Shown piece by piece: positions 31,984 through 52,100 of a stretch of DNA of 64,000 nt (position 1 is the stretch's first letter; every line of letters begins with the position of its first letter). Under the pieces are notes generated by a model. The model had not been told where the DNA came from. It worked only from the letters and a program-made list of their open reading frames with translations, and did no database searches. A program made the position numbers and the translations under genes. The DNA is taken from contig CAWAGZ010000004.1 in NCBI GenBank assembly GCA_963781755.1, forward strand, positions 272,937 to 336,936, given 5' to 3'. This DNA is from an uncultured Acidobacteriota bacterium. GTDB lineage: Bacteria > Acidobacteriota > Thermoanaerobaculia > Multivoradales > JAGPDF01.

Positions 31984-33648
31984 ATGAGACCCGCACCGCT
32001 CTGGAACGCCCTGCTGCTGGCCGGCACCGCGGCGCTCGCCGCCGCTCCTCCGGGAGCGGCCGGCGCGACCGCCGGCCCGTCGCCCGGGCAGGTCGTCGCG
32101 GGTCCCACCGCGACCGCGGTCGCGACGCCGCCGCTGGCGAGCTTCCAGGCCGTACTGCAGCCCGAGCCGTGGCCGAGCGAGAAGGCCGAGGACCGCGTCA
32201 ACCCGCTGGCGGACGAGCCCGACGAGGGGCGCCGCGGCACCTGGAACCGCCTCGGGGTCCCGGAGGATCCCCTCGCCGGCCGCAGCCTCGCCGCCGGCGC
32301 CGAGACCCCGACGCCGCTGTTCGACTTCGCGGGGACAGATCAGCAGCACGGCTGCAGTTGCGCTCCGCCCGACACCGTCGGCGACGTCGGACCGAACCAC
32401 TACGTGCAGATGGTCAACGCCACCAAGATCCGGATCTTCGACAAGACGGGGGCGCCGGTCACCGGAGTGATCGACCTGGCGAGCTTCTGGGCGTCGGGCA
32501 ACTGCCACAGCGATCTGGGCGACCCGGTCGTCGTCTACGACTGGCTCGCCGACCGCTGGCTCCTGGCGCAGTTCGCGACCCCTCAGCAGTTCTGCTTCGC
32601 GGTGTCGCAGACCGCCGACCCGACGGGGTCCTACTTCGTCTACGAGTTCCCGGCCTCGAACTTCCCGGACTACTTCAAGATCGGCGTCTGGCCCGACGCC
32701 TTCTACGTCGCGGCCAACGAGAGTCCGTACAGCGCCTGGGCGTTCGAGCGCTCGAAGATGCTCGTGGGACAGACCGCGCAGTCGCTCCAGGCGTCGGTTT
32801 CCGGCGACAACTTCCTGATGCCGGTGGACTTCAACGGCCACGCGGCGCCGCCGGCCGGGACCCCGGGCTACTTCTACACCTTCCTCGACGACTCCTTCCA
32901 CGGCGGAGTGGACCGGATCCAGCTCGGCTCCTTCCAGGTCGATTGGGCGACGCCGGGCAACTCGAGCTGGAGCAGCACCGACCTGCCGATCGCGTCGTTC
33001 ACCTACACCGTGTGCGGCTTCTTCAACTTCAACTGCGCGCCGCAGGCCGGGACGACGCAGAAGTTGGACGTGGTCTCGGAGTGGCCGATGTACCGCTTCA
33101 CCTACCGCCGCTTCGACGACCACGAGAGCCTGCTCGGCAACTTCACCGTCGCCACCGGCTCGCCGACGATCGCCGCCCCGCGCTGGTTCGAGCTGCGGCG
33201 GACCTCGGGCGCTTGGAGCCTGTACCAGGAGGGGACGTACGTGCCGTCGGGCGGCGTCTTCCGCTTCATGGGCTCGATCGCCCAGGACGCGAGCGGCGAC
33301 ATCGCGCTCGGCTTCACCGCCTCGAGCTCCACGATCCACCCCCAGATCCGCTACGCCACCCGGCTGGCTTCCGATCCGCTCGGCACCCTGGGGTCCGAGG
33401 TCACGATGACCTCCGTCCTGGTCAACGGCTCGCAGACCGGCTCGAACCGCTGGGGCGACTACTCGGCGATGGCGATCGACCCGGCCGACGACTGCACCTT
33501 CTGGTACACCAACGAGTACTACCCGGTGAACAGCTCGGGATCCTGGAAGACGCGGGTCGGCTCCTTCCGGATCCCCGGCTGCGGGGCGATCTTCATCGAC
33601 GGGTTCGAGTCCGGCGACGCCAGCCGCTGGAGCGTGACCCTTCCCTGA
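31984..33648 (+). CDS. secreted hypothetical protein (signal peptide) ending in the C-terminal tail FIDGFESGDASRWSVTLP
   Basis: A 554-aa ORF with an N-terminal signal peptide (MRPAPLWNALLLAGTAALAAA). Its C-terminal 18 aa are shared with the proteins ending at 42186 (+) and 42345 (-). Confidence 0.7.
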   Translation: MRPAPLWNALLLAGTAALAAAPPGAAGATAGPSPGQVVAGPTATAVATPPLASFQAVLQPEPWPSEKAEDRVNPLADEPDEGRRGTWNRLGVPEDPLAGRSLAAGAETPTPLFDFAGTDQQHGCSCAPPDTVGDVGPNHYVQMVNATKIRIFDKTGAPVTGVIDLASFWASGNCHSDLGDPVVVYDWLADRWLLAQFATPQQFCFAVSQTADPTGSYFVYEFPASNFPDYFKIGVWPDAFYVAANESPYSAWAFERSKMLVGQTAQSLQASVSGDNFLMPVDFNGHAAPPAGTPGYFYTFLDDSFHGGVDRIQLGSFQVDWATPGNSSWSSTDLPIASFTYTVCGFFNFNCAPQAGTTQKLDVVSEWPMYRFTYRRFDDHESLLGNFTVATGSPTIAAPRWFELRRTSGAWSLYQEGTYVPSGGVFRFMGSIAQDASGDIALGFTASSSTIHPQIRYATRLASDPLGTLGSEVTMTSVLVNGSQTGSNRWGDYSAMAIDPADDCTFWYTNEYYPVNSSGSWKTRVGSFRIPGCGAIFIDGFESGDASRWSVTLP

Positions 33649-33664
33649 CGCGGACGATGCGACC

Positions 33665-37186
<3,522 letters not shown>

Positions 37187-37372
37187 CCCAGTAGGGGTGG
37201 CAATCGCCGCGAAATAGCGCCGCGCACAGCTTCAGGCATCGGCTTCCGACTTCCCTGGGGCCCCCTAATGCCCTCGCCTACTCCAGTTTCAAGCGTGGAG
37301 CCAGGCTATGGCTCTCTCGCGTGGGCACTCCTCCCCGCGCCGACTGATGGCCGTGGGAGCTTCGAACCCGTG

Positions 37373-39439
37373 CTACTGCGGCGGCTGGCAGGCCCCTGGA
37401 TTCCCGTCGAAGACATCCGCTTCAAAGTTGTCGATCGAGTTCTCACCTTCCGCGAAGCTCTGGCCCGCGGGCTTCCATCCCTTGAAATACGCGACCGAAG
37501 TGCTCGGCGGCGCGTCGGAAAGAACTACTCCAGTGAGTACGGGCTCAGAGTTTACGTAGACGTCTGCGCTCGGTGGGGTCGTCTGATAGTTCACGAGAAG
37601 CCGGACATCCGTCTTGCCAAACGCCCAAGCCCCCACGCCCGTTGTAGCGTATGTTGTCGTTTGGTTGTTGTGAACCGTCTCCAGCGAAATCTCGAGCGGA
37701 GGTGCCGGGAACCTAGTACTCTGAGGATACCCGACAACTCTTATCAAGTCGTTGACGACGGTGCCCGCTGAGAGTCCTATCTCGAGGTGATTCAGTCCAG
37801 GCGTAATAACGCCACGAGTGCTTACCGAAGTCTGCTGCGACACGTTTGATAGCGCCAACTTGCCCCGCCATGTCGATTGTCCAGCGAGCCCTCTCGGTAC
37901 TGCGCTTCCCATCCAGATTCCCGTCTGGGCGTCTTGATTCCCCCAGGTCTCGGCGTTGTTGCCCGTCCATCCTGTACCGCCTCCCGCGTCTGGGAGCTTT
38001 CCATTCAGCCCTATGTTGCCCAACTCGCCGTTGAAGGCGTCTCTCGCTACAAAGGTCGGAAGCTCTTGAAACATCCGGCATGCCACGTAGTCCTTCTGCC
38101 ATTTCGCGCCTGCGCCACTTCCATTCGTGTTCCAGTCAACCCCACTCTTCATCTCGTTCATGATCTCAAAGATCATGTTGCCAACTCCACCCACCTCCTT
38201 TGCCACGAGCTCAAGATAGGCGTTCTGAATCGGAACAATCCTACTGTCGTTGAGAAACGCGTCAAGAGTATTACATTGATTCCCGTCGTTCTCAGAGTCG
38301 AAGAGTTCGATGCTCCCGCAGTCGTTCGCTTGGCAGCAAGCGCCATTCAGGTCGCCCCCATCGAGGAAGTCTATAGTCGGGAGATTCGCGTCCCTGTTGT
38401 ACGGGCTACTCGGCCACTGCCCAGGGCAATTGATGTCGTTGTCTATGAGGCCGTGTTTGTCGAAAAGGGAAAGCTGCACGACGATACCTCGGTCGGCGGC
38501 AAGTTGAGCGAACTCACGGAGTCGGGCAAAGAACAATGGGTTTAGCCCTGAGATGCTGAGGTCATAGTCGGGATAGCTTCCGGAGAACGGGGTAAGGCCC
38601 TCCGCGTGCGGGCTCGGACAAACCGCTCTTCCTGTCCACTGCTCGATCGCCCAGATTCGGGTCAGGTTTGCTCTATAGGTACGAAGCGTATCTAGGAATC
38701 CATCGTTAGCCCCAGTTCGCAGCAGAATGGCCCTATTCCCTGCTGCAAGAGCTCCCATGTGGCTAAATCCAATCAGCGTCGCTGGCTCCCCATTCCAAAA
38801 GAACACCTCCGTATGTGGAAAACTGATGTCGGGACTGATTCCCCGAGTCAGTGTACCGTTGGGTGACATGGGCGCATTCATTGCTAACCCAGCGCAGCCG
38901 GAGTCATGGATGTAGGCCATCATGTCTCGGGCACCCGGCCAGGGAGTGCCGTCGGTCTGCCAGGTGTTCCATCCGCCTATCGTGAGACCTAGCTTTGCCT
39001 TGTCAGCTAGGATGGCTTCATAGTGCTCGTAGTTCTCGAATCCGCGCGGCTTGGAGTGGTTCTGGATCGCTGAGCAAATCTCCCCAATGTAGCCTTTCTG
39101 CTTTTCATTCCGCGTCGCGCCGGTGAAGCTTGCGTCGTCGGAGTAGATCTTCGGCTTCTGGTCGGAACTCGTGTTATTGACGTAGCAGCGCGCTTGCACG
39201 AACGTATTATGAACCTTGTCGATATGGTAGGAGCTTGCTCCTACGTCCTGAGATCGAGCAAGTGCTTGGAATGGTTGTTGGTCGCAGGGATCACCGAATA
39301 CGACGGGGTGCTGGTTTCCTGAGATTATCCCACGCTGAGCGAGCGCCACTGGATTGATGCAGATGAGCGAGGCACCTAGTGCAAGCAGGAGTCTCCTATT
39401 GAGGCGCATGTTCTTGCGGACATGCGTCGGTTCTCGCAT
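37373..39439 (-). CDS. secreted glycoside hydrolase, GH5-like (cellulase family)
   Basis: A signal peptide (MREPTHVRKNMRLNRRLLLALGASLICINPVALA) follows a strong RBS (AAGGGAGGG) before ATG 39439. IFEIMNE resembles the GH5 catalytic acid/base NEP motif. The gene is about 50% GC in a roughly 70% GC background. Confidence 0.6.
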   Translation of the reverse strand: MREPTHVRKNMRLNRRLLLALGASLICINPVALAQRGIISGNQHPVVFGDPCDQQPFQALARSQDVGASSYHIDKVHNTFVQARCYVNNTSSDQKPKIYSDDASFTGATRNEKQKGYIGEICSAIQNHSKPRGFENYEHYEAILADKAKLGLTIGGWNTWQTDGTPWPGARDMMAYIHDSGCAGLAMNAPMSPNGTLTRGISPDISFPHTEVFFWNGEPATLIGFSHMGALAAGNRAILLRTGANDGFLDTLRTYRANLTRIWAIEQWTGRAVCPSPHAEGLTPFSGSYPDYDLSISGLNPLFFARLREFAQLAADRGIVVQLSLFDKHGLIDNDINCPGQWPSSPYNRDANLPTIDFLDGGDLNGACCQANDCGSIELFDSENDGNQCNTLDAFLNDSRIVPIQNAYLELVAKEVGGVGNMIFEIMNEMKSGVDWNTNGSGAGAKWQKDYVACRMFQELPTFVARDAFNGELGNIGLNGKLPDAGGGTGWTGNNAETWGNQDAQTGIWMGSAVPRGLAGQSTWRGKLALSNVSQQTSVSTRGVITPGLNHLEIGLSAGTVVNDLIRVVGYPQSTRFPAPPLEISLETVHNNQTTTYATTGVGAWAFGKTDVRLLVNYQTTPPSADVYVNSEPVLTGVVLSDAPPSTSVAYFKGWKPAGQSFAEGENSIDNFEADVFDGNPGACQPPQ

Positions 39440-39669
39440 GGAAACCCTCCCTTTCCCGGTTGCTGTCACGGCGGGACGGCCGCGTCAGCTTCAGGCAGTC
39501 CAAGCAGAGTCGCTCAGGCAGTCCACCGCCTTTCCGTGCCAGTGGGCAACCGCCCGTTGGGCGGGCTAATCGCCGCCTGTTCGGGCGGTCAGGTCTTCTT
39601 GGCACGCCGGTGTAAAGTGACTTTCGCCCAACGTCTCCTCCTCTGGCTGGTTCAAGTGGGGGCTGCCTA

Positions 39670-42186
39670 GTGAGAGTTCTCGGAATGGCTTCTGCGCTGC
39701 GGCTCCTGCCCCTGTACATCGCGATTCCCTGGGCAGGTCCCGCCCTCTCACAGCCAATACCGCTCGATTATTCCGAGCGCCAGGTGAATACATACACGCC
39801 CTGTGATCAGTGGCGGCCCGCTGTGGCGTCGGACCCGGACGGGTCGTTCGTCGTGGCCTGGACGAGCTGCGGGTCGCTGGGCAACGACGACTCCTTCAGC
39901 AGCGTGCAGGTGCGGCGCTTTGGCGCGGACGGCAACCCTCTGGATGCGGCAGACTTTCAGGTCAACATGTACACCGCCTACGATCAGCGCTACCCCTCGG
40001 TCGCGAGCGATGCGGAGGGGAACTTCGTCGTCGTGTGGGAGAGCTACGGATCGGCCGGTGGCGACGACGACGGGTACAGCATCCAGGCGCGGAGATTCGC
40101 GGCCGACGGGACTCCACTCGACGCCGCGGAATTCCAGGTCAACGCCTACACGACGAACCTCCAGCAGCGGCCGAAGGTCGCCATGGACCCCGAAGGGAAC
40201 TTCGTCGTCGTCTGGGACAGCTGGGGCTCGCCGACCGATTCGTCGGCCTACAGTGTCCAGGCGCGTAGGTTCGGCGCGGACGGAGCTCCGCTCGAGCCCA
40301 CGGAGTTTCAGGTCAACACGTTCACGTCCAACACTCAATTCACGCCGTCGGTGGGCGCCGACTTCGACGGCGGCTTCGTCGTCGGCTGGTTCAGTCACCA
40401 CCTGTGCGGAGGAGTCGAGTGCACGAGCATCGAAGCGCGCCGGTACCGCCGTGACGGCACCCCTGCGGACCCGGCCGAGTTCCGCGTCGACACTCCTGCG
40501 GGCAATGGCGTTGGCTCGCCGACGGTCGGCGCCGATCCCGCGGGCGAGTTCGTGCTTGCCTGGGAGATCACTCAACCGATCACCTTCCGCGAGAGCATCG
40601 GTGCGCGTCGATACCGCACCGACGGCACTCCAGTCGATCTCTTCGACTTCGAAGTCAGCTCCTACACCACCTGGGCGCAGGACCGGCCCTCGGTCTCCGC
40701 GGCCGCCAACGGCGATTTCGTGGTGGCATGGAGCAGCTACGGATCGAGCGGAGACGACCCCGGATTCAGCGTCCAGGGCCGCCGGTACCGTCCGGACGGC
40801 CCTTCTGTGGACCCGGGAGAGTTCCAGCTCAACGCCTACACCACGGGGAACCAGGTCCGGCCGTCCGTCTCACGGCGGCTGAACGGCGACTTCGTGGTCG
40901 CCTGGCAGAGCTACGGGTCGTTCGGCGACGACTCGAGCTACTGGAGCATCCAGGAGCGCCGCTTCGGGCGGCCGACGATCGAGGTGACGTCCAGCTCCGG
41001 AGCGACAGGCGGCCCGGACTGCAAGCTTCGCGACGCAATCGCGGCAGCGAATGCCGGTCAACCGGTCGGAGGCTGCCCGGGCGGAAACGAGGGGGCGGAA
41101 ATCGAGCTTCCGCCGGGGGCGACGATCGTGCTCACCGTCGCCGACAACGGGTCGAACGGACTTCCGCTGATCGCGAGGCCGATCACGGTCCGGGGTCGCG
41201 GCGCGACGATCACCCGGGACCCCGGGGTCGCCTGTCCGGTGGAACCGGAGTTCCGGATCTTCGAGGTGGTCGCGGGAGGTATCCTCGAGCTCCAGGACGT
41301 GACCGTGGCGCGCGGTTGCATCTCCAGTGGGAGTGGCGGAGCGGTGCTCGCGAGCGGCGGCACCGTTCTGCTGACCCGCGCTTCGATCGTGGGCAGCGAG
41401 GCGGGCTCCGACGGAGGCGGGGTCGCGGTGGTCGACGGCAGCTTGTTCGCGGCCGGCGCCACGGTGCGCGGTAACCTCGCAGCCGGGTCGGGAGGTGGCA
41501 TCTCGGTGTCGGGACTGGAAGGCCGCCTGCTGCTGCGTCGCTCGACGCTCTCTGGCAACGCCGCGACCTTCGGCGGTGGGCTCTCGCATGCGGCAGGCAC
41601 CCGGGCCTTGATTCGGACGTCGACGCTCTCCGGCAATGCGGCGCTGGGGTCCGGCGGTGGGATCGAGGCGGCTGGCTCCGGAGCGGGAAGCCGGGTGGTG
41701 CTCGACTTCTCCACGGTTACCGGGAATTTCGCCTCGGTCGGAGGTGGCTTGGACCTGGGATCCGGGACGTTCGATCTCCACGGCAGCCTGGTCGGCGAGA
41801 GCGCCTCGGGTGGAGACTGTGCCGCCGGCACCGGTGTCCTGGTCGCCACCGGTGCCAACCTCGACACCGACGGAACCTGCACGGCTCTGGCGGGGGGCCA
41901 CGTGTCGACGGTGGTGTCGCTCGACCTGGGTCCACTCCGCGACAACGGCGGATTCGTCTCAACCCGTGCCCCGCTCGGGGGCAGTCCTTCCCTCGACGCG
42001 GCGCCCGACTGTGCGAACCGCTCCGGCGCGGCTGCCCTCACCGACGAGCGAGGCTACCCGCGGCCGACCGACGACGACGGGGACGGCGCGCCCGCGTGCG
42101 ATCTGGGCGCGGTCGAGCGCGGACCGGTGTTCCTCGACGGCTTCGAGTCGGGCGATTTATCGGCCTGGTCCGGCGCGGGTCCCTGA
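39670..42186 (+). CDS. large secreted protein: seven tandem repeats of about 57 aa, then a CSLREA-type parallel beta-helix domain; ends in the tail FLDGFESGDLSAWSGAGP
   Basis: It has a signal peptide. The repeats follow the pattern FQVNxYTxxxQxxPSVAxDxxGNFVVxWxSxGSxGxDxxxxSxQxRRFxADGxP. The CKLRDAIAAAN motif resembles CSLREA. GGGxxxxG beta-helix repeats follow. Confidence 0.7.
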   Translation: MRVLGMASALRLLPLYIAIPWAGPALSQPIPLDYSERQVNTYTPCDQWRPAVASDPDGSFVVAWTSCGSLGNDDSFSSVQVRRFGADGNPLDAADFQVNMYTAYDQRYPSVASDAEGNFVVVWESYGSAGGDDDGYSIQARRFAADGTPLDAAEFQVNAYTTNLQQRPKVAMDPEGNFVVVWDSWGSPTDSSAYSVQARRFGADGAPLEPTEFQVNTFTSNTQFTPSVGADFDGGFVVGWFSHHLCGGVECTSIEARRYRRDGTPADPAEFRVDTPAGNGVGSPTVGADPAGEFVLAWEITQPITFRESIGARRYRTDGTPVDLFDFEVSSYTTWAQDRPSVSAAANGDFVVAWSSYGSSGDDPGFSVQGRRYRPDGPSVDPGEFQLNAYTTGNQVRPSVSRRLNGDFVVAWQSYGSFGDDSSYWSIQERRFGRPTIEVTSSSGATGGPDCKLRDAIAAANAGQPVGGCPGGNEGAEIELPPGATIVLTVADNGSNGLPLIARPITVRGRGATITRDPGVACPVEPEFRIFEVVAGGILELQDVTVARGCISSGSGGAVLASGGTVLLTRASIVGSEAGSDGGGVAVVDGSLFAAGATVRGNLAAGSGGGISVSGLEGRLLLRRSTLSGNAATFGGGLSHAAGTRALIRTSTLSGNAALGSGGGIEAAGSGAGSRVVLDFSTVTGNFASVGGGLDLGSGTFDLHGSLVGESASGGDCAAGTGVLVATGANLDTDGTCTALAGGHVSTVVSLDLGPLRDNGGFVSTRAPLGGSPSLDAAPDCANRSGAAALTDERGYPRPTDDDGDGAPACDLGAVERGPVFLDGFESGDLSAWSGAGP

Positions 42187-42344: not shown

Positions 42345-44144
42345 TCAGGGCGTGGTCGAGGACCAGTTCGCCGTGCTGCCGCGCTCGAAGCCGTCGTCGA
42401 AGATCAGCCGGCACGAGGCCGGGAGCGCCGTGTCGCCGGCGAGCTCGACGATCTGGGTGCGCCACGTGTTGGTCGCGGGCGCCAGCTCGGCGACCGACCA
42501 GAGCGTGTTGCACGTCCAGTCGTGGGCGACGCCCATGTAGTCGCCCCAGCGGTTGCGGCCCTGGTAGTAGACGTTGTAGGTGCCGCTGCCCCCGGCGGTG
42601 GCCCAGAACGGACCGCTGGTGTCGACGAGGAAGTTGGTGTAGAGCTTGAAGGCGGCCGAGGGGTAAGCGGTGTCCCCCGAGTAGGTCATCGGCACGCCGA
42701 CCATCGGGTTGTTGAACAGGTCGCTCCCGACCAGCCCGACCGCCGGGTAGTAGTAGTCGAGCCCGCCGGTGAAGTAGTTGATGGCCCGGTCCTGGACGTG
42801 GCTGTCGGTGTTGATCTTGCTGACGTAGAAGCCCGAGTTGCTGCTGTCGTTGGAGTTGACGCTGAAGTAGAGCTTGTGGTTGTCGTAGGCCGCGGTCAGG
42901 GCGCCGGCGTAGAAGGTCTCGATGTCGTCGAGGACCGTGCCGGGCTGGCGCGCCAGCGGCGGGCTCGCGTAGGCGTCGACGGTCACCGAATACGGGTCGA
43001 GGTGCGGCGCGTTGCCGCGGTCGCCGGTCATCTCCCACAGGCAGGCCTGGTTGCCGCTGGAGTTGAAAGTGTTGACGAAGTAGGTGGCGCCGATCGAGCT
43101 TCCCGTGTAAGGGACGGCCGGCTGGAGCTCACGGGCGAGCGGGTTGCCGGCATTGGGCCAGTGCAGGCCCCAGAAGATCCAGCCGGCGGTGCCGGTGTCG
43201 GTGAAGATCGTCGGCCGGACGCTGTAGACGATGGCGTGCTTGAAGCCGCCGGCCCAGTAGTACTCGTTGCCGGTGAAGTAGAAGCCGAAATCGTCGGCCG
43301 ACATCCCCGAGTAGTCGATCCACGTGTCGGTGTTGTACCCGTCGTAGAAGTAGTAGAGCGACCAGGCGCCGAGCGGGTTGTCGGTGTGCGAGATGGCGAC
43401 GAAGGCATAGCTCTTCTGGGCGTTCGAGTCGCTGGCCAGCGCCAGCAGGACGAACTTGTTGTGGAACGGGTCGTAGATCACGCGCGGATCGAAGACCTTG
43501 CCGTTGGCGAACGACCAGGGGGACGGCAGGTACGGCAGCAGCGGCGCGAACAGGCCGTTCTCGAGGTCGTTGTAGGAGCGCTCGAGGCCGCCGTCCTTGG
43601 TGTAGATCGTCAGCCCGGAGTTGACCGACTCGACGATGTACTTCGGTCCCACGGCGATCACCGGGTCGGGCGGGATCCAGCCGGTCGCGGACTGGCCGGC
43701 GAAGGAGCGCAGGATGTCGCCGGCCGCCTGGGGCGCGGCCGGAGCGTTCGGAGCGTTCGGGTCGTCTGGGTCGGCCAGCGGCGCCGGAACGGGCGCTTCG
43801 CTCTCGACCGCGTCGGAGCTGGCGAAGAAGTCGCCCAGGCCGCCGCCGAGCTCGCCCTCGTCGTCTTCGACGTCGTTGGAGGAGCCCTGGGCGTGACCGC
43901 GCAGGACGCCGGGGATCCGGTCGGGGTCGCCGCCGGGGACGTCCGAGAGCCGGACGACGACCGGGCCGATCATCTGGAGCGAGCCACCCGGAGCGGCCGA
44001 AGCCTCGCCGGTGGCGGCGGCGGGCGCCTCGCCGGGACGGGGCGTCTCCTGCGGGGGGCGCGGAGGGGTGGAGCCGAACGCCGGCGCCGCGAGGGCGCAG
44101 GCGAGGGCCAGCGGGAGCAGCTTCACGTGCTTTGCGGTGGTCAT
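42345..44144 (-). CDS. secreted hypothetical protein (signal peptide MTTAKHVKLLPLALACALAAPAFG) ending in the tail IFDDGFERGSTANWSSTTP
   Basis: About 600 aa from ATG 44144. The N-terminal 324 aa of ORF 42345..45119 are Arg-rich out-of-frame overlap with the next gene and are rejected. Confidence 0.7.
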   Translation of the reverse strand: MTTAKHVKLLPLALACALAAPAFGSTPPRPPQETPRPGEAPAAATGEASAAPGGSLQMIGPVVVRLSDVPGGDPDRIPGVLRGHAQGSSNDVEDDEGELGGGLGDFFASSDAVESEAPVPAPLADPDDPNAPNAPAAPQAAGDILRSFAGQSATGWIPPDPVIAVGPKYIVESVNSGLTIYTKDGGLERSYNDLENGLFAPLLPYLPSPWSFANGKVFDPRVIYDPFHNKFVLLALASDSNAQKSYAFVAISHTDNPLGAWSLYYFYDGYNTDTWIDYSGMSADDFGFYFTGNEYYWAGGFKHAIVYSVRPTIFTDTGTAGWIFWGLHWPNAGNPLARELQPAVPYTGSSIGATYFVNTFNSSGNQACLWEMTGDRGNAPHLDPYSVTVDAYASPPLARQPGTVLDDIETFYAGALTAAYDNHKLYFSVNSNDSSNSGFYVSKINTDSHVQDRAINYFTGGLDYYYPAVGLVGSDLFNNPMVGVPMTYSGDTAYPSAAFKLYTNFLVDTSGPFWATAGGSGTYNVYYQGRNRWGDYMGVAHDWTCNTLWSVAELAPATNTWRTQIVELAGDTALPASCRLIFDDGFERGSTANWSSTTP

Positions 44145-44146
44145 GG

Positions 44147-45058
44147 TCACTCTCCTGGAGTGGGATCGGGACATCTGTCGAGCCATGCGGAGGTCTGGAC
44201 GGTGAGCGGGTCGCGCGGGCGGCCGTCGTCGAGACGCGCGTCGGCCAGCGGCCGGAGCGAGATCGCCTCGGCGACGTCGAGGCCGGAGGCGACGCGGCCG
44301 ACGACCAGCCACTTGCCCAACCGGGTCGGATGGTCGGCGAGCAGGATCGAGAGCTCGAGCCGGGCGCGGGTCGGCGAAGCGGGGACGAGCGCGACGGCGC
44401 CGCGCAGCGGCGGCTGCGAGTCGAGCCCGGGGCGGAAGCGGTAGCCGAGTGCTTCGAGGATCTCCTGCCGGCTGGTGCCGACCAGGAACGACGGGTCGTA
44501 GTCCTTCTCGAAGCGCTCGCGCCAGGCGGCGAGCCGGGGCGTCGCCGGCTCCTCGGCCTCCCCGTGGTCGTTGTCTTCGGCACGCAGGTCCCCGGACTGC
44601 TGCCCGGGGCTCTCGCGCTCGGTCTCGGGTGCGGTTTCGACTTCGGGTTTGCGGCGCGTGGCGGCGCGCTGGGCGGCGGGGAGGAGCTCGAACTGCAGGA
44701 CGTTCATCGCCTCGCCGGCGTCGGCGATCCGGCTCCGGTCGAGACCGAGCGCGGCGGCGTCGTTGACCAGCTCGACGGTCGAGGAGGCGTCCGCCGGCCG
44801 CGGCTCGAGGCGCAGCTCGAGGTGCGGCCGCTCGAAGTCGAAAGCCAGTCCGGCGAAGCTCGATCCGTCGCCCTGCTCGAGCGCCGCGATGGCCTCGGGT
44901 GACGCCGCGCGGTCGAAGCGCAGGACGATCGCCCCGGCGGTGGTCTCCAACCGCAGGCAGGGGTCGGGCGCCACGGCGGCGGGTTGCCGCCCGGCGCGCG
45001 CCGAGGCGCAGCCCGCGAGCAAGATCGCGCTCCACACCATCAGGATTCGTCGGTCCAT
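44147..45058 (-). CDS. putative lipoprotein with a cyclophilin-like (peptidyl-prolyl isomerase-like) C-terminal segment
   Basis: Signal peptide and lipobox (ILLAGCASA) are present. The C-terminal GKWLVVGRVASGLDVAEAI resembles the cyclophilin FGKV..GMDVV motif. It lies immediately upstream of, and co-directional with, the tagged secreted protein gene. Confidence 0.5.
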   Translation of the reverse strand: MDRRILMVWSAILLAGCASARAGRQPAAVAPDPCLRLETTAGAIVLRFDRAASPEAIAALEQGDGSSFAGLAFDFERPHLELRLEPRPADASSTVELVNDAAALGLDRSRIADAGEAMNVLQFELLPAAQRAATRRKPEVETAPETERESPGQQSGDLRAEDNDHGEAEEPATPRLAAWRERFEKDYDPSFLVGTSRQEILEALGYRFRPGLDSQPPLRGAVALVPASPTRARLELSILLADHPTRLGKWLVVGRVASGLDVAEAISLRPLADARLDDGRPRDPLTVQTSAWLDRCPDPTPGE

Positions 45059-45148
45059 TCGCACTCTCCACTTCCTGCCAGTCACCTAGGAGACGGGAAC
45101 CGCGGGGAAAAGCGGACACGGGGCGGCGAAGGTGGCGCCGAGGCTCAG

Positions 45149-45625
45149 GTGACAGTTACGCCACATCTCCGATGTGGCGTAACTGTCACCTCTCGAGCGC
45201 GACGCAGGCCCTGCCTCGGCGAGCGTGTGCCGGTGCGCACCGAAGGCGTCTCCAGGGGACACCCAGCAAGCCAGGGTGTCCCCTCGGGGAATCTCCCGCC
45301 TCGCCGGTCAGCGAACTCCAGGTCTGTCATCGGGAGGGGCGGCCTGGAAAAGGGGGACAGGCACCCATTTCCCACGGTTCAAGAATCTCGGCTGGGAGCG
45401 CTGCCGGGACTCGGAAATTGGTGCCTGTCCCCATTTTTCGGTCCTTCGTTCGATTGGATTGCGCGGCGCTCGGAGGCCAGGCCTCCACGTTGGCTGGCTC
45501 CTCCCGACGACAGACCTCGGCTTGGCGCACCGGCGAGGCGGGAGATTCCCCCAGGGGACATGCAGGCTTGCTGCGTGTCCCCTCATGACGCCTTCGTCCC
45601 GCCGCGGCACCCGCCGGCTCGCGCC
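45149..45625. repeat. composite structured repeat: palindrome P2 (45149-45189), H module (45215-45345) and an inverted H module (about 45470-45625)
   Basis: P2 has a perfect 19-bp inverted repeat, GTGACAGTTACGCCACATC-TCCG-GATGTGGCGTAACTGTCAC. H2 and H4 are mutually inverted copies, each containing the GGGGACAY.C...G.RTGTCCCC hairpin. Confidence 0.8.
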
Positions 45626-45645
45626 ACGGCTAGAATCGAGCTTCC

Positions 45646-46122
45646 TTGGCCGCAGAGACCCTTGCGCCTTCGGCGCCCGCGCCCGGTCTCCGGACTTCCG
45701 TGGCCGCGCTCGCGGCACTGGCCCGGGAATCGCCGATCGAGGTCGTGGTGACCACCGGCTCGATGGCGCCGGCGATCGCCGCCGGCGCGCGGGTCGAGGT
45801 CGCGGGGCAGCGGCGCTACCGGCGCGGAGACGTCGTCGTCTTCGCCAACTCGGCCGGGGATCTGGTCGTCCACCGGCTGCTCGGCCGCCGGCGCGTCCGG
45901 GGCTCGGTCCACCTGGTCACCCGCGGCGACGCCGCGCCGCGCGCCGACGGGCTGGTGCCGCCCGAGCGCGTCGTCGGCCGCGTCGTGGGCGGGGAGTGCG
46001 CGCCGCGGGTCGCCGACGTGCCGGCCGGCGACCGGCTGCGCGCCGCCGGGCGATTCCTCGGCTACCTGGCCGGTCGCGTGCGCGCGCGCGTCGCCGACCG
46101 GCGCGAACCGGGAGAGACGTGA
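45646..46122 (+). CDS. S26/S24-family (signal peptidase I / LexA-like) serine peptidase-like protein
   Basis: VVVTTGSMAPAIAAGARVEV matches the SGSMxP(T/A) Ser-nucleophile motif of signal peptidase I-type peptidases. It is the first gene of the operon, and the 4-bp overlap with the next gene implies translational coupling. Confidence 0.6.
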   Translation: MAAETLAPSAPAPGLRTSVAALAALARESPIEVVVTTGSMAPAIAAGARVEVAGQRRYRRGDVVVFANSAGDLVVHRLLGRRRVRGSVHLVTRGDAAPRADGLVPPERVVGRVVGGECAPRVADVPAGDRLRAAGRFLGYLAGRVRARVADRREPGET

Positions 46123-47087
46123 CCTTCGCCGCGGCGTTCCTGCGCGAGCCGGACCTGTTCCCGGCGCGCCCGGCGGGGGAGCCCTGGGGCACGGCGAGCC
46201 TGGCCGTGGACGCGATCGCCGGGCCGTACCTCTTCCTCGGGCTCTCGGAGGCGCAGCGCGAAGTGCTCGCGGCGCACTTCGGCGCGCGCGTCGTTGTCGG
46301 AGACCCGCCCGGGGACGCGACGCCGATCGTCGCCTTCCGGGTCGCCGCGGAGGAGCTGGTGCCGATCGTCGAGGAGCCGTGGGAGCTCCAGATGGACCTC
46401 GAACCGGCGCCGACCTGCGTGCGCTGGGCGACGCGGCGCTCCTTCGGCCGTCTCGACTGGCGCCCCGAGATCGCCGCCGCGCTCTGGCTGCCGGAGCCGG
46501 AGACCGGGACGCCGGACGCCCGCGCCGCCGAGGAGTGGATCGGGACCTTCGGCAACGCGCTGCGCATCGCCATGGCCCACCGCCTGCTCGCCGCCGGCGG
46601 CGTCCTGCTGCACAGCGCCGGGGTCGCCCGCGAGGGGCGCGGCTACGTCTTCTTCGGCCGCTCGGGGGCGGGCAAGTCCACGCTCGCGCGCCTGTCGCAC
46701 GAAGCCGGCCTCGAGGTGCTCTCCGACGAGCTCAACGCTCTCTACGAGCGCGACGGCGCGCCGGTCGTCGAGCGCCTCCCGTTCGCCGGCGACTTCGGCC
46801 GCGACCGGGAGAGCGTGGGCCTGCCCGGCGACGCCGCCGGACGGCGCGTCTTCCCGCTCGCGGCGCTGCTCGCGCTCGCCCAGGGCCGGCCGCCGCGCCG
46901 CGAGGCGCTGCCCCGTGGCCGGGCGGTGGCCGAGCTGGCGGCGTGCGCGCCGTTCGTCAACGTCGATCCGCACCGCTCGCCGCGCCTGCTCGAGACGCTC
47001 GAGCGGCTGACCGCGCGCTTCCCGGTCGAGCGCCTGACGTTCGATCTCGACGCCGGCTTCTGGAGTATCCTGACCGCGAACCGATGA
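46119..47087 (+). CDS. HprK-related kinase (P-loop; HprK-related kinase A/B family)
   Basis: GTG 46119 overlaps the upstream stop. The Walker A motif GRSGAGKST lies in an HPr-kinase C-terminal-like fold context (LLHSAGVAREGRGYVFFGRSGAGKSTLA). Confidence 0.7.
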   Translation: MTFAAAFLREPDLFPARPAGEPWGTASLAVDAIAGPYLFLGLSEAQREVLAAHFGARVVVGDPPGDATPIVAFRVAAEELVPIVEEPWELQMDLEPAPTCVRWATRRSFGRLDWRPEIAAALWLPEPETGTPDARAAEEWIGTFGNALRIAMAHRLLAAGGVLLHSAGVAREGRGYVFFGRSGAGKSTLARLSHEAGLEVLSDELNALYERDGAPVVERLPFAGDFGRDRESVGLPGDAAGRRVFPLAALLALAQGRPPRREALPRGRAVAELAACAPFVNVDPHRSPRLLETLERLTARFPVERLTFDLDAGFWSILTANR

Positions 47088-47111
47088 GAGCTGTCCGATG
47101 AGAGTCCGGCG

Positions 47112-47432
47112 ATGACCCCGGCGCCGTCCGGGAGCCCCCGATACCGCCGTGTCGCCGACGTGCGCTACCGCGTCCTCGACGGCGAGGCGGTGGTGCTGCG
47201 CCAGCGCGCGGCCGAGGTGCTGGGCCTGAACCGCGTCGGCTCGCGGGTGCTCGAGCTGGTGGACGGCGAGACCGGCGAACCGGAGCTGCTCGACCGGCTG
47301 GCCGACGAGTTCGAGGTCGAGCGGGCGACGCTCGAGGCGGACGTCCGCGCTTTTCTCGACGAGCTGGTCGCCGCGGGCGTGCTCGAGCGGCTGCCCGCGG
47401 CCCCGGGGGAGAGCGCGGAGACGGAGCGATGA
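47112..47432 (+). CDS. PqqD-family peptide chaperone (RiPP recognition element)
   Basis: A 106-aa protein (VLDGEAVVL...LNRVGSRVLELVDGETGEPELLDRLADEFEVERATLEADVRAFLDELVAAGVL) typical of PqqD/RRE proteins. Confidence 0.75.
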   Translation: MTPAPSGSPRYRRVADVRYRVLDGEAVVLRQRAAEVLGLNRVGSRVLELVDGETGEPELLDRLADEFEVERATLEADVRAFLDELVAAGVLERLPAAPGESAETER

Positions 47433-48548
47433 GCGCCGGCGGCGGCGAGGGCGCGGCGAGCTACGGCGAGAAGCTGGCGACCTTCTGGCGCGACAACCGG
47501 CTGTTCACGGTTCTGTTCGAGCTGACCTACCGCTGCAACCTCGACTGCTCGTTCTGCTACAACGACCTCGGCCTGGCCGGCCGGCCGCTGACGCTGGCGC
47601 GCTACCGCGAGGTGCTCGACGAGCTGGCCGTCCTGGGCACGATGCACCTGGCCCTGTCGGGCGGCGAGCCGCTGGCGCACCCGGACTTCTTCGCCATCGG
47701 ATCGCACGCCCGCGAGCGCGGCTTCGTGGTCCGGATCAAGTCGAACGGCCATGCCCTGCGCGGCGCCCTGGCGCGCCGGTTGCGCGACGAGGTCGACCCC
47801 TACCTGATCGAGATCAGCATCCACGGCGCGCACGCGGCGACCCACGACCGCCAGACCCGGGTGCCCGGGAGCTTCGAGCGTCTGCTGGCCAACCTCGAGG
47901 AGCTCAATGCGCTCGGGATCCGGGTGCAGCTCAACTCGACATTGACCGCTTGGAACGAGGCCGAGATCGGGGAGCTCTTCGCCCTGACCGACCGTCTGGG
48001 GCTGCCGCTCCAGGTGGACCCGGAGGTCACCCCGCGCGACGACGGCGACCGCACGCCGCTCGACATCGCTGCCCTCGCGCGCGGGCATCCGCCGGCTGTT
48101 CGAGCTGCAGCGCGAGCGCGTGGCGCGGGCTGCGGCCGAGGGCGCGCCGCCGCCGCCGCCGGTGGGCAAGCAGGCCGACTCCGCCGGCACGCCGGTTTCG
48201 GCGGGCAAGTACTGCGGCGCGGGCTCCTCGCACCTGACGGTGGATCCCTACGGCAACGTCTACCCGTGCGTCCAGTGGCGCCGGCCGGTGGGCAACCTCC
48301 ACGAGACGACCGTCGCCGAGATCTGGTCGTCGTCGCGCGGCCTCGCCGAGGTGCGCGCGGTCGAGGGGGAGGTCCTGGCGAACGTCGAGGCGCTGGGGCC
48401 GGACGGACGCGACCTCGGCCTCTGCCCGGGGCTGGCCGAGCAGCTCACCGGGCACGCGGCGCGCATCTACCCGGCGGCGGCGGAGCGGCTCGAGCTACGG
48501 CGCGACGTGGCGCGCGCGGGGCACGCCAAGCTGCCGATCGTGCGCTGA
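47429..48548 (+). CDS. radical SAM / SPASM-domain peptide-modifying enzyme, interrupted by a +1 frameshift near 48083
   Basis: The radical SAM core is in frame 2 (CNLDCSFCYN, GGEPL). The SPASM domain is in frame 0 (CGAGSSHLTVDPYGNVYPC) and ends at 48548. Removing one G from the GGG at about 48083 gives a continuous 373-aa protein. ATG 47429 overlaps the PqqD stop. Confidence 0.75.
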
Positions 48549-48556
48549 GGGCGAAG

Positions 48557-48595
48557 GTGACAGTTACGTCACAGACATAACTGTCACCTTTTTCG
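48557..48595 (+). terminator. intrinsic terminator formed by palindrome P3 plus a T-run
   Basis: GTGACAGTTACGTCACAGACATAACTGTCAC is followed by CTTTTTC, 9 bp after the radical SAM stop. Confidence 0.5.
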
Positions 48596-48725
48596 GGCCA
48601 CCAACGCCGGGTGCCGGTGCGAACCGAAGGCGTCTCCAGGGGACACGCAGCAAGCCAGCATGTCCCCTCGGGGAATCTCGCGCCTCGCCAGTCCGCGGAG
48701 CCGCGCTCTTTCACCGGCAGGCGAG
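48557..48725. repeat. composite structured repeat: palindrome P3 plus H module H3
   Basis: H3 (48600-48725) carries the hairpin GGGGACACGC-AGCAAGCCA-GCATGTCCCC and a conserved tail (CGGGGAATCTCGCGCCTCGCCAGTC). Confidence 0.8.
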
Positions 48726-49101
48726 GCGGGCGCCCTGCCGCTTTCCACTTCTCTTGCTGCTCTGGTCTTCTTCTGGAAAGGGAGTACCCGGTGGGCACCC
48801 GCCGGCGAAGCCAGGCGGCGCCCTTCGGCGGGTTGGTGGGGGTGGGAGGGTGGGCTGCAGGGCGCCGGGACCCGGGCCGCAGCGATCTACGAAGACACCA
48901 CCAGATTACAACCGCCCCCCTGGCCGAAGGCTTTTCCCGGGGAGCACAACGCCGCAACGGCTTCGAGCTTCTCGCGGTAGACGATGCGGGGCGCTTGGTA
49001 GCGGCCCCGCTCCGGTCTTCCCGGCTCGGTGCTCGCGTCGGCTTCGGTCTCGGGTCGGCGGTCGGTCATCGAGTCAGTCACCATTCGAAGGATGCATCAC
49101 G

Positions 49102-52100
49102 TCAGTTCTCGTCGCCCGAGGGGGACGGAGGCACGTCGATCACGGGCGCCGGGACGAGCGTCGCCGGATCGCCCAGCAGGACATAGAGACGGGCGAGCCC
49201 GGGGTCGCCGCCCTTCTCGAGGTAGCGCGCGACGGCCGCGTGCAGCACGTCGCCCAGGCGCAGGTCGGGTTCGTGGAACGCGGCGTCGGCGAGCGCGATC
49301 CCGAGCTCGCGCGCATCGCCCCGCTCCGACTTGCCGGCCGGCGCCCAGACCGCGATCGCGCCGCCGGCCGGCGAGCGCACCAGCTCGGTGCCCAGGGTCC
49401 GGAACTCGTGCAGCTCGAAGCGGTTGACCAGGCAGGTCATCGCGGTGACCACCGGCGTGCGTCCGAGGTTGGTCATCTGATCGACGTCGTCCAGGTTCAG
49501 GAGCGAAGGCGAGGCCAGGTTCTGCACGCCGCCGTGCCCGAAGTAGTCGAGCCAGCCGATGCCGGCCGCGAAGTCGCCCAGCAGGCGCGCGTGCGCGGCC
49601 TCGTTGCCCAGCGCCGAGACCGAGATCGAGTCCACGTTCATCGCCGGGGCGATGTGCGGCGCGACGCTCTGGGCGTCGAGCTCGAAGTCGTCGCCCTCGT
49701 CCGGCGCGGCGGCGACCAGCGCCGCCCGTCCGGCCCAGTCGCCTGCGCCGCCGCCCTCGTAGAGGTCGAGCTTGTGGACGAAGGCGGCGACGTCCGCCGG
49801 GACCAGCGCCGGCACGCGGCCGACCTCGATCTCGGGCAGGCCGTCGCCGTCCACGTCGCCGTAGCCGGCGTCGGCGGCGACCAGGCCGCCGGTGCCGACG
49901 TCGGTCGCGACCATCAGCGGCGGCACGAGGTCGCCGCCGTAGCCGAGGCGGTCGCGCAGGTCGTAGTTGCCGTCGCCGACCAGGACCGCGTAGCGCGGCC
50001 GCACCTGCCAGTGATTCCAGGCCCAGGCGAGGAAGCGGGAGATCGCGCGCGGGCCGTGGATGCCGGAGTCGAACTCGTCCTCGACGTCCTCGAGCCGGGC
50101 CACCATCACGCTCAGCCCCTGGCCGGCGCGGCGCGCCGCCAGGGCCCGCGCGGCGGGCACCAGGAAGTCGGGCGCGACGACGACGTACTCGGCGCCGGCC
50201 GAGGCCCGCAGCGCGCTCGGGCGGTCCGCTTCGACCGCGAGCGGTGCGCGGGCCGCGGCGGGCGAGACCGCCAGGTAGTCGCGGGCGCCACCCTTCTCGG
50301 CGAAGCCGAGATTCCAGCCGCCGCTCCCGGGCTCGAGCGCCGCGCCCACGAGGCGCACGGGCCGGTCGGGATCCGAGACGTCGAGCAGCAGGACGTCGGG
50401 ACGGCTGAACCCGGTCACGGCGGTGGCGCCGGAGTCGCGGAACGCGAGCCGGTCGTCGAGCGCGTGGTGGCTGCGCGTGTATTCGAGCGCGAAGCCGTCC
50501 ACCATGACGGTGCTGTTGGGGGCGCCGCCGCCCGGCCGCGCGTGCAGCGTGACCTGGTTGCCCGCGGGCAGGATCCGGGCCGGGTCGATCGGGTAGCGGA
50601 CGACCTGCGGAGCGAACCCGGTCCAGTTCGTGGTGCCCAGCGGCAGGCCGTTGAAGTCCACCTCGACCTCGTGCTCGTCGTCGATCCCGAGCGAGGTGTC
50701 GCCGAACAGGCGGACCTCGAGCACGGCCCCGCCTTCGCCGGTCGGGTCGGGGGCTTCGACCGGATAGTCGCGCGTCGTCGGGTGCGCGACGTCGGTCCCG
50801 AGCTGGTCCTGGAACCAGAAGTCGGAGGCCGGGTCGAAGGGCAGGGCGACGATCGAGATCAGGTCGCGCTCGGTCTCGACCCGGTCGGGAGCGGCTCCGG
50901 CGGGCGCGGTCGGCGCGACGGAGACCCCGCGCGACGGCATCGTCGCGCCGGAGCCGAGCGTCAGGCGATAGACGCTGTCGGCCTCGAGCTCGTCGGCGGG
51001 CGGGCGGCCGTAGAAGAGGAGCGCCGAGCCGTCGTCGGCGGCCAGCCACGGCGCCTTGGCGCCGCGGTGGGTGAGCAGGAAGCCGCCGCCGCGCAGGCGG
51101 TCGCGGACCGCGGACTCGGGTACGCCGAAGCGCGCGGCCAGGTCGGAGGCGTCGACCCGGTAGAGGCCGGCGTCGAGCAGGTGCAGCTTCAGCGCGCGCA
51201 CCGGGGTCGGAGCCGGCCCTGCCAGGGGTCCGCGCTGCGCGGCGAGCCGCGAGCGGCGCAGACGCGCCAGTTGGACCGGATCGGGACCGATCGCTCGGCG
51301 CGAGAAGGCGAGCGAGGCGTCGAAGCCGGCGGCGAGGTCGAGCTTCGCCGCGCCCTTCGGCGTCTCGGCGGCGGGCCGGAAGGGGCCGTAGCGGCGAACC
51401 TGCCCGTCGATCTCGACCTCCACCAGGGCGTAGATCGGGTCGGCGCCCGCGCCGGCGTCGACCGTGCGGTAGACCGCGCCCGCGGGGGCGGGAGAGTCCG
51501 CGAGGATCATCCCGGGCTGCACCAGTTCCCAGTCGCGGGAGTCGCGGTTCCAACGGTAGAGGTAGTAGCCCGCGGTCCGGTCCTCGGTCGCGGTGCGCCA
51601 CTCGACGGCGCCGCCGTGCCGCATCGGCGCGGCCGCGAACGAGGTCACCAGCGTGTACGTGGGCTGACCCGAGGTCACCGCCAGCTCGCAGATCGGGCCC
51701 AGGGTCGAGAGCGCTCGCGCCTGCGAGGCGTTGCCGGTGGCGTCTACAAAGCGGGCGCGGGTGCCCTGGGCGGCGGCGAAGTTGCTGTCGATGTTGGCGG
51801 TCCCTGTCGTGCGGATACGCACGCCCGAAAGGTTCGGGGTGACCCGGACGTCGTAGGCGAGGATGCAGGTCGTGCCGGCAGCGACCGAGCCCGGATTCCA
51901 GATCACGCTGCCCGCGGTCGCGCCGTCGGCCGGCTGCGAGGCGACGCTGCCGCAGCTCGCCTGGGCGCTCGACCCGGAGTACGCGACCCGGGCGTCGCCC
52001 GGCAGGTCGGCGACGACGACGTTGCCCGCGGTGGTCGTGCCCGAGAAGGTGATCGGGAACGGCGTCGGGTTGGTCACCCGCACGGTCACCGTCACCGTCG

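Follow-up and report, generated by a model that had tools for sequence, protein, structure and literature searches.

What is signified when several exported proteins of one bacterium finish in the same short peptide is the question raised by a 64,000-nucleotide stretch (here termed the window) of contig CAWAGZ010000004.1, assembly GCA_963781755.1, from an uncultured Acidobacteriota bacterium of the Thermoanaerobaculia. Three of its open reading frames (ORFs), with stops at 33648 and 42186 on the plus strand and at 42345 on the minus strand and products here called A, B and C, close on translation with F-x-D-G-F-E-x-G-x4-W-S-x3-P-stop. The answer favored here, with a probability of about 0.55, is that this tail is a modular, lineage-specific C-terminal localization tag of Thermoanaerobaculia-type Acidobacteriota that would be read in trans after Sec export.

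The terminal peptide and its spread

The three shared 18-residue tails that the initial annotation had reported are present both by translation and in a six-frame scan of the whole 64 kb, which meets the motif at three sites only, each exactly 18 codons ahead of a stop. A tail profile run over the window recovers the same three copies (E 2.5e-13 to 6.9e-12) and no divergent extra tails. Their positions had been given correctly, save that each range took in the stop codon. Each tail has three D/E and zero or one K/R, with no hydrophobic stretch, and the earlier exclusion of a transmembrane (TM) helix, and hence of a signal of PEP-CTERM, LPXTG or GlyGly-CTERM type, stands. DNA-level likeness among the tails ends at the common CCC-TGA; what is conserved is therefore a coding unit, as opposed to a repeat in the DNA. 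Signal-peptide-like N-terminal segments are present on A, B and C.

For its distribution, the back-translated pattern F-x-D-G-F-E-x-G-x4-W was sought at the DNA level in one genome per species, for 185,579 species, giving at least 119 loci; the counts in this paragraph are among the matches listed. Other genomes supply 123 in-frame matches with the stop inside the locus; the distance to it is precisely 18 codons in 58 of them, a proportion that excludes chance, and at most 24 codons in 90. The scan for protein-terminal occurrence elsewhere, proposed when the tails were first noticed, is thereby strongly positive. Ser follows the Trp in 46 of 56 and Pro occupies the last position in 49 of 56, neither residue being part of the search pattern, and the consensus of the tag is [ILV]-F-[AS]-D-G-F-E-S-G-D-T-S-A-W-S-x-T-V-P-COOH. 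Near-invariance of F-x-D-G-F-E-x-G is confirmed in a pattern-free manner by a profile search and an ortholog series, with conservative variants such as D-N-F-E-T only. By record title, 73 of 83 terminal-tag loci are labeled Thermoanaerobaculia, Holophagae, Acidobacteriota or related; the other 10 comprise five that are unclassified and five from three metagenome-assembled genomes (MAGs) with other labels. Internal copies of the motif are mostly from other phyla.

An HMMER profile search of 1.84 billion representative proteins yielded 5,861 clusters at E<=1e-3, terminal and internal forms together. In 60 of 144 newly listed profile hits the motif is at most 24 residues from the end (exactly 18 in 44), and where top profile hits have a single motif, the copy is terminal in 44 of 51. 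A word-indexed protein search with the tail profile gave 15 short fragments, uninformative on breadth, which served as input for the exhaustive search. Tandem tags about 21 residues apart are present in a few proteins (P0036, P0040, P0041, P0051, P0071, P0086, P0090, P0099 and P0159), but their seeming frequency in the top-150 list is a bias of summed scores; with none among 206 unbiased terminal-tag loci, the tandem arrangement is rare. No model of Pfam (2025 copy) or NCBIfam release 20.0 matches the tail at E<=10, near-consensus tails included, and full-text literature searches found no description of the motif strings or of Thermoanaerobaculia sorting signals, in keeping with the initial view of the tail as an undescribed signal. 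Database names of carriers are 'hypothetical protein' or refer to the body domain only. The tail is a widespread, unannotated C-terminal tag of Thermoanaerobaculia-type Acidobacteriota.

Unrelated carriers and interchangeable endings

With tails removed, 84 carriers from the loci listed fall into at least 44 single-linkage groups, and about 52 of 67 complete carrier ORFs have signal-peptide-like N-termini by a heuristic (basic plus hydrophobic N-terminus). Domains recognized in the carriers with Pfam and NCBIfam are M36, S8, M28 and M14 peptidases, choice-of-anchor Q, J and B, FG-GAP, beta-helix, BNR and InhA-MAM. Those with M36 match NCBIfam models for myxosortase-, rhombosortase- and type IX secretion system (T9SS)-dependent forms, and the carrier classes are typical of sorted proteins. 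The upstream domains had been thought unrelated, which is borne out across genomes by the at least 44 unrelated carrier groups but not for A and C, whose bodies are distant homologs (an N-terminal segment taken without its tail gives BLASTP E 3e-7) with a common NRWGDY region. Protein B is unrelated to both. It consists of N-terminal propeller-like repeats, a CSLREA-like motif (CKLRDAIAAAN, recognized by eye), a beta-helix and a choice-of-anchor Q domain (aa 752-817), directly after which comes the tag; the NCBIfam name choice-of-anchor Q reflects a position beside varied C-terminal anchors. The body of protein A finishes at a conserved Cys, and the tag begins 3 residues later. Among protein relatives, an ortholog of C is found in locus L077 and homologs of A in L114 and L094, which point most probably to a Thermoanaerobaculia MAG; blastn of the window against the loci had no hit.

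The family of A has more than 2,400 homologs and is well conserved, without functional annotation, its body ending at the invariant Cys. About a dozen of the best 120 homologs end at that Cys, and 35, the closest ones, add the tag, which is conserved among orthologs down to about 55% identity; a variant, F-x-D-N-F-E-T-x-G-T-T-R-W-S-x-x-A-P, is still of 18 residues. Many other homologs, including ones labeled Chloroflexi/Anaerolineae, have instead a PT-rich linker ending '[IL]YLP[LVI][VI]xx'. In the 120 homologs of B that were examined, what comes after the terminal 'CD[IL]GA[FV]E' of the choice-of-anchor Q domain is likewise varied: nothing, the tag (19 of 120), a half-tag, a signal of TM segment plus basic residues, a '[YFW]LP[LV][IV]xR-COOH' tail, or a dockerin, the last in P0310, P0312 and P0356. 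The half-tag, '...[IV]F-x-[DN]-G-F-E-COOH', is the first strand of the tag without the Trp, at or 1-2 residues from the end (P0303, P0304, P0309, P0311, P0337, P0361, P0369, P0371, P0387 and P0391), and where an organism is named it is always from the Xanthomonadales (Rhodanobacteraceae, Rudaea, Xanthomonadales MAGs). With homologs that end in this way, the Trp loses the indispensability that had been ascribed to it.

A second short, TM-less C-terminal motif stands in the place of the tag in both families (P0204, P0236, P0242, P0257 and P0244 for A; P0307, P0315, P0332, P0357, P0370, P0375, P0376 and P0403 for B). In the A family it comes after a Pro/Thr-rich linker as '...[ILV][YFW]LP[LVI][VI]x(R/K)', 1-6 residues from the end; labeled carriers are mostly Chloroflexota/Anaerolineae MAGs, and P0244 is named 'T9SS type A sorting domain-containing protein' at NCBI. 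It resembles a further terminal tag specific to a lineage. The enrichment of Cys ahead of the tag (36% vs 7%) was considered as a tag feature and rejected: it belongs to the carrier bodies, the A-family Cys being kept without a tag and choice-of-anchor Q itself ending CD[IL]GA[FV]E.

Internal copies of the motif occur in Chloroflexota, Actinomycetota, Armatimonadota, Vicinamibacteria and archaea, where the repeats are 190-290 residues apart; of 92 multi-copy proteins, 38 have the last copy 175-215 residues from the C-terminus. Both the spacing and the position of the last copy imply that the motif opens a domain of about 190 aa. Its matches to Polysacc_lyase (PF14099) and CBM_4_9 are weak and below threshold and start at profile positions 1-3, as fits the first strand of a ConA-like jelly-roll, which on these alignments is probably what the domain is. 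With the first strand and turn of such folds (CBM_4_9, PF14099, LamG-like) the tag shares [ILV]-F-x-D-G-F-E-S-G-[DN]-x-S-x-W, but it is only the first 18 residues and then a stop, with none of the complete jelly-roll or CBM-type domain of about 190 aa after it. Position 9 is Thr in 65% of tags vs Leu/Phe in 74% of internal copies, the latter are without a consensus such as the terminal T-V-P, and the tag comes directly after a folded body whereas internal copies come after Pro/Thr-rich linkers. To judge from these sequence differences, the terminal tag is a specialized derivative of the internal motif. Hidden Markov models for what follows the first strand of the internal-type domain, run on six-frame translations of the window and 119 loci in search of a headless jelly-roll partner, had no match in the window or in those loci that have a terminal tag, this search being a local one.

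Structure prediction is also pertinent. For protein A, AlphaFold2 with a 62-sequence alignment gives a confident beta-propeller-like body (predicted template modeling score, pTM, 0.85), for which Foldseek against the PDB returns generic propellers only, and leaves residues 537-554 unpacked on it, with no secondary structure and a predicted local distance difference test (pLDDT) of about 40-45. The C-terminal half of protein B is a beta-helix (pTM 0.90, mean pLDDT 91) with its tail at about 51-52. Tail values of 40-52 vs body values above 90, on two unrelated bodies, put the tail outside the carrier fold, and the tag is predicted to be a free, unstructured appendage. The features of the window are collected in Table 1.

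Table 1. Tags, tag genes and neighboring features in the window (window coordinates)
Feature	Position	Strand	Remarks
Tag of protein A	33592..33645	+	FIDGFESGDASRWSVTLP; stop codon 33646-33648; profile E 2.5e-13
Tag of protein B	42130..42183	+	FLDGFESGDLSAWSGAGP; stop codon 42184-42186; profile E 6.9e-12
Tag of protein C	42348..42401	-	FDDGFERGSTANWSSTTP; stop codon 42345-42347; profile E 4.4e-12
Gene A	31984..33648	+	554 aa, Sec-exported, beta-propeller-like; large family without functional annotation
Gene B	39670..42186	+	~835 aa, exported; start GTG 39670 or ATG 39685
Gene C	42345..44144	-	599 aa, exported, distant homolog of A, tagged
Lipoprotein gene	44147-45085	-	312 aa, LAGC lipobox, no family match
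SipW-type signal peptidase	45646-46122		cassette (~45.6-48.6 kb)
HprK-related protein	ends at 47087		cassette
PqqD	47112-47432		cassette
Radical SAM (rSAM)/SPASM enzyme	47429-48580		cassette
C25 peptidase	49102-53892	-	1,596 aa, convergent on cassette

Reading the tag

Eight attributes of small C-terminal sorting signals have been listed by Haft (bioRxiv 10.1101/2023.06.07.544157), and the tag displays those numbered 1, 2, 3, 6, 7 and 8. Attribute 1 is seen in the 18-residue distance to the stop, in the window and in the proportion of matches elsewhere given above; attribute 2 in the number of copies per genome (three in the 64-kb window, three in 8 kb of locus L011 and at least 3-4 loci in several MAGs); and attribute 3 in the near-invariant F-x-D-G-F-E-x-G. 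For attribute 6, an N-terminal signal peptide on most carriers, there are the 52 of 67 by the heuristic together with A, B and C; for attribute 7, pairs of carriers without similarity outside the signal, the 84 carriers in their 44 groups; and for attribute 8, homologs that are shorter or otherwise signaled, the A family, the B family and the M36 carriers.

The tripartite signals, taken as one class (LPXTG/sortase, PEP-CTERM/exosortase, GlyGly-CTERM/rhombosortase, MYXO-CTERM/myxosortase and PGF-CTERM/archaeosortase), resemble the tag in their extreme C-terminal position, many copies per genome and short near-invariant signature, in having unrelated Sec-exported carriers from the same cargo families (M36, choice-of-anchor, subtilases), and in homologs from other lineages that are without the signal or have another one. 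The tag has no sequence similarity to models for them, and differs in being acidic, 18 residues long and without a hydrophobic TM helix or Arg/Lys cluster, so that it could not be presented to an intramembrane or membrane-anchored transpeptidase in any known way. The C-terminal domain (CTD) of T9SS substrates is likewise a C-terminal signal that has no TM helix and is borne by proteins exported via Sec in a diderm bacterium, and a C25-family peptidase with weak similarity to PorU of that system is encoded 7 kb away. The T9SS CTD is, however, a folded beta-sandwich domain of about 70-100 aa whereas the tag is an 18-aa peptide; T9SS sorting-domain models have no match in A, B, C or the families most often matched by 81 carriers, the C25 peptidase reaches 149.5 bits where the PorU cut-off is 420, and C25 homologs are near tags in L069 and L107 only, of 239 loci.

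Dockerins, with their cohesin partners, are similarly modular, acidic, Gly/Asp-rich C-terminal appendages of diverse secreted enzymes, and it is a dockerin that replaces the tag in some B-family homologs. The tag is less than one third of dockerin length and without the duplicated 22-residue Ca-binding segment, PF00404 has no hit in A, B, C or the top families of the 81 carriers, and we know of no cohesin-like partner for it. Type I secretion substrates are without a Sec signal peptide and usually have RTX repeats; the tag carriers have signal-peptide-like N-termini, and no RTX family is among their top domains. The tag belongs with none of these three (T9SS CTD, dockerin, type I secretion signal). 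In its statistics and its position it is the equivalent of a signal for sorting or docking, yet it fits no class so far described.

As a localization tag it might function as follows. Sec export and folding of the body would come first, leaving the acidic peptide exposed. A dedicated reader in the periplasm, in the outer membrane or at the cell surface would then bind it in trans; the peptide would probably add a beta-strand or hairpin to the reader, which would recognize the C-terminus in a fixed register. Once bound, the cargo would be sent to the cell surface or would leave the periplasm, whether it docks non-covalently or is cleaved and attached. With no TM segment, the route would not be via a membrane-embedded enzyme of the sortase, exosortase or rhombosortase type.

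A number of observations weigh against this. Two of the eight listed attributes are absent: there is no TM helix (attribute 4), the stop coming 18 aa after the first Phe with no hydrophobic run, and no basic cluster at the end (attribute 5), which has zero or one K/R and the consensus T-V-P. The tag thus falls outside the class of small C-terminal sorting signals, and its analogy with known signals extends to position and statistics only. In the samples, the search pattern itself is partly responsible for the invariance of F, D, G, F, E, G and W. About one third of terminal tags deviate from 18 residues (13-24), some stopping right after the Trp, which means that strict reading from the C-terminus is not universal. 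The low pLDDT of the tail is compatible with a trans-read tag and is no proof of one. Around first some 83 and later about 200 tag loci, clustering of the neighboring ORFs brought up neither a reader nor a processing enzyme. The only recurrent neighbors around the roughly 200 loci are an extracytoplasmic function (ECF) sigma factor (10 loci) and a Ser/Thr-kinase-TPR protein (18 loci), a regulatory pair whose members belong to large families of paralogs. By analogy with other many-to-one sorting systems, a reader, if there is one, would not be encoded beside its substrates.

ECF-type sigma factor genes and genes for the kinase-TPR protein, of about 1,000 aa, lie by tag genes in L035, where the kinase gene abuts the tag gene, and in L048, L062, L131, L152, L207 and others. 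Their recurrence may reflect regulation of the exported proteins or merely an abundant paralog family, 10 and 18 loci being roughly what one would guess, as opposed to compute, for a large paralogous family. A third seemingly recurrent neighbor family proved to be the antisense shadow of the kinase.

An elaboration of the localization reading, possible though unlikely, makes the tag one partner in an as yet undiscovered system of two components by which proteins would be placed on the outer membrane or beyond it. As a split-domain dock, analogous to cohesin-dockerin, it would be a detachable first beta-hairpin completing by strand complementation a 'headless' ConA-like receptor on the cell surface; the other form would be a linear post-Sec export signal. 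The Xanthomonadales …F-x-[DN]-G-F-E-COOH would serve the same system in reduced form, and the Chloroflexota '[YFW]LP[LV][IV]xR-COOH' tail would be an independent counterpart.

Alternatives in which the tail is something other than an address have also to be weighed. That it governs proteolytic fate, as a degron or activation peptide for a periplasmic Prc/CtpA-type protease with PDZ-mediated recognition or as a protective cap whose terminal Pro might resist carboxypeptidases, is rather improbable. Recognition of the carboxy-terminus would be suited by the conserved T-V-P and by a distance to the free end that is fixed, and many carriers are peptidases, a class often needing controlled activation. 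But many other carriers (FG-GAP, beta-helix, BNR, choice-of-anchor) need no activation, and conservation is best not at the extreme terminus but in the N-terminal F-x-DGFE strand, which in the half-tag stands alone. What favors localization over proteolysis is the positional exchange of the tag with sorting signals and dockerins.

Improbable too is a cis-acting or self-associating element, such as a Ca2+-binding acidic hairpin for stability, oligomerization or matrix binding. The composition, acidic and Gly-rich (D, E, D with G), is what might be expected of one; in jelly-rolls of CBM/LamG type the first strand often helps to form a structural Ca2+ site, and a few proteins have the two tail units about 21 aa apart already mentioned. 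The structural diversity of the carrier bodies speaks against it, as do the tail left unpacked by AlphaFold on two unrelated bodies and the lack of tandem copies in the unbiased sample.

Very improbable is the initial suggestion that the neighboring cassette of HprK-like, PqqD and rSAM genes, with its SipW-like and C25 peptidases, recognizes or modifies the tail, for example at the Trp. It has in its favor that the cassette and C25 peptidase lie within 3-7 kb of genes B and C, and that in L069 a C25 ortholog beside the same cassette bears an inserted copy of the motif. The tagged genes do not flank the cassette as had been thought: B and C are convergent neighbors, both on the same side of it, and C with its lipoprotein gene diverges from it. 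The surroundings of about 200 independent genes with a terminal tag, 1.5 Mb in all with the metagenome scan included, have rSAM/PqqD/HprK-like homologs in L069 only, where there is no terminal tag, and C25 homologs there and in L107 only; linkage of C25, rSAM, PqqD, HprK-like and SipW genes to tag loci is negative. In L077, the closest available relative of the gene C neighborhood, the gene C ortholog keeps its lipoprotein partner but the cassette is absent. The best matches of the cassette are to systems for ribosomally synthesized and post-translationally modified peptides (RiPPs) of SynChlorMet/GeoRSP type and to PqqD chaperones. RiPP-type systems act on small, leader-bearing peptides encoded beside the maturase, whereas the carriers here are 550-840-aa Sec proteins; moreover, the Xanthomonadales half-tag is without Trp and the window's own C25 protein is without the motif. 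Absence of the cassette from the roughly 200 tag loci other than L069, the L077 pair without it and the one-sided placement of B and C leave the proposed functional link unsupported.

Least probable of all is that the tail is a functionless evolutionary stump, what remains of a jelly-roll (CBM- or lectin-like) domain lost but for its first strand. It is nearly identical to the opening of the ~190-aa C-terminal domain of Chloroflexota, Actinomycetota, Armatimonadota and archaea, and that opening aligns weakly to Polysacc_lyase and CBM_4_9 at profile positions 1-3. A stump evolving neutrally, however, would be expected to decay and to differ in length from case to case. The tail is instead fixed at 18 residues, with a T-V-P end absent from the internal motif and a systematic Thr in place of its Leu/Phe; it directly follows folded bodies and not PT-rich linkers, is conserved among A-family orthologs to about 55% identity, and occurs in thousands of clusters and on bodies of at least 44 unrelated groups.

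Surroundings and significance

Gene C likely starts with the ATG at 44144 (MTTAKHVKLLPLALA...), and between this start and the stop of the lipoprotein gene there is a 4-bp overlap; the pair is kept in L077 (E 1.8e-72). The region of RiPP-like cassette and C25 peptidase extends over 45225-53892. The HprK-like, PqqD, rSAM and C25 gene cluster recurs in L069 in another gene order, which suggests that cassette and C25 peptidase are a functional unit of their own; no precursor peptide for the cassette was identified. At aa ~1,135-1,165 the L069 C25 protein has an insertion of about 28 residues, absent from the window protein, with a Cys-flanked motif (C...IFVDGFENGTFCAW).

Between genes A and B, metH (methionine synthase; 33665-37194, plus strand) is split over at least three reading frames, with S-methyl_trans 1-126 in one, 133-282 together with the pterin and B12 domains in another and Met_synt_B12 in a further one. 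Such splitting points to assembly indel errors or a pseudogene; the three tag genes are intact. Positions 37373-39469 (minus strand) encode a 698-aa exported protein with no family match and no tag, and its gene, a 54-59% GC island in a 70% GC window, may have been acquired horizontally. Window positions 1-28152 are a glycan/exopolysaccharide (EPS)-type biosynthesis locus with genes for four GT4 glycosyltransferases, a carbamoyltransferase, a sulfatase, an NAD epimerase, an FkbM methyltransferase and a WecA-like transferase. EPS loci often house exosortase systems; no exosortase was seen among the scanned window ORFs, which cover part of the window.

New envelope machinery has repeatedly come to light by way of short C-terminal sorting signals, as with sortases, exosortases, rhombosortases, myxosortases and the T9SS. 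Here a signal-like tag is on thousands of protein clusters in an abundant, almost uncultured acidobacterial class, and the tagged set consists of degradative enzymes and adhesin-like proteins that shape polymer use in soils and sediments. Without a membrane anchor on the tag, no known intramembrane or membrane-anchored sorting enzyme can be its reader, and the reader, once found, would define a new surface-display or secretion route in diderm bacteria. Meanwhile the tag would offer annotators a simple exoproteome marker for the lineage. Its apparent origin in a lectin-like first hairpin would show a sorting or docking tag evolving from a domain fragment.

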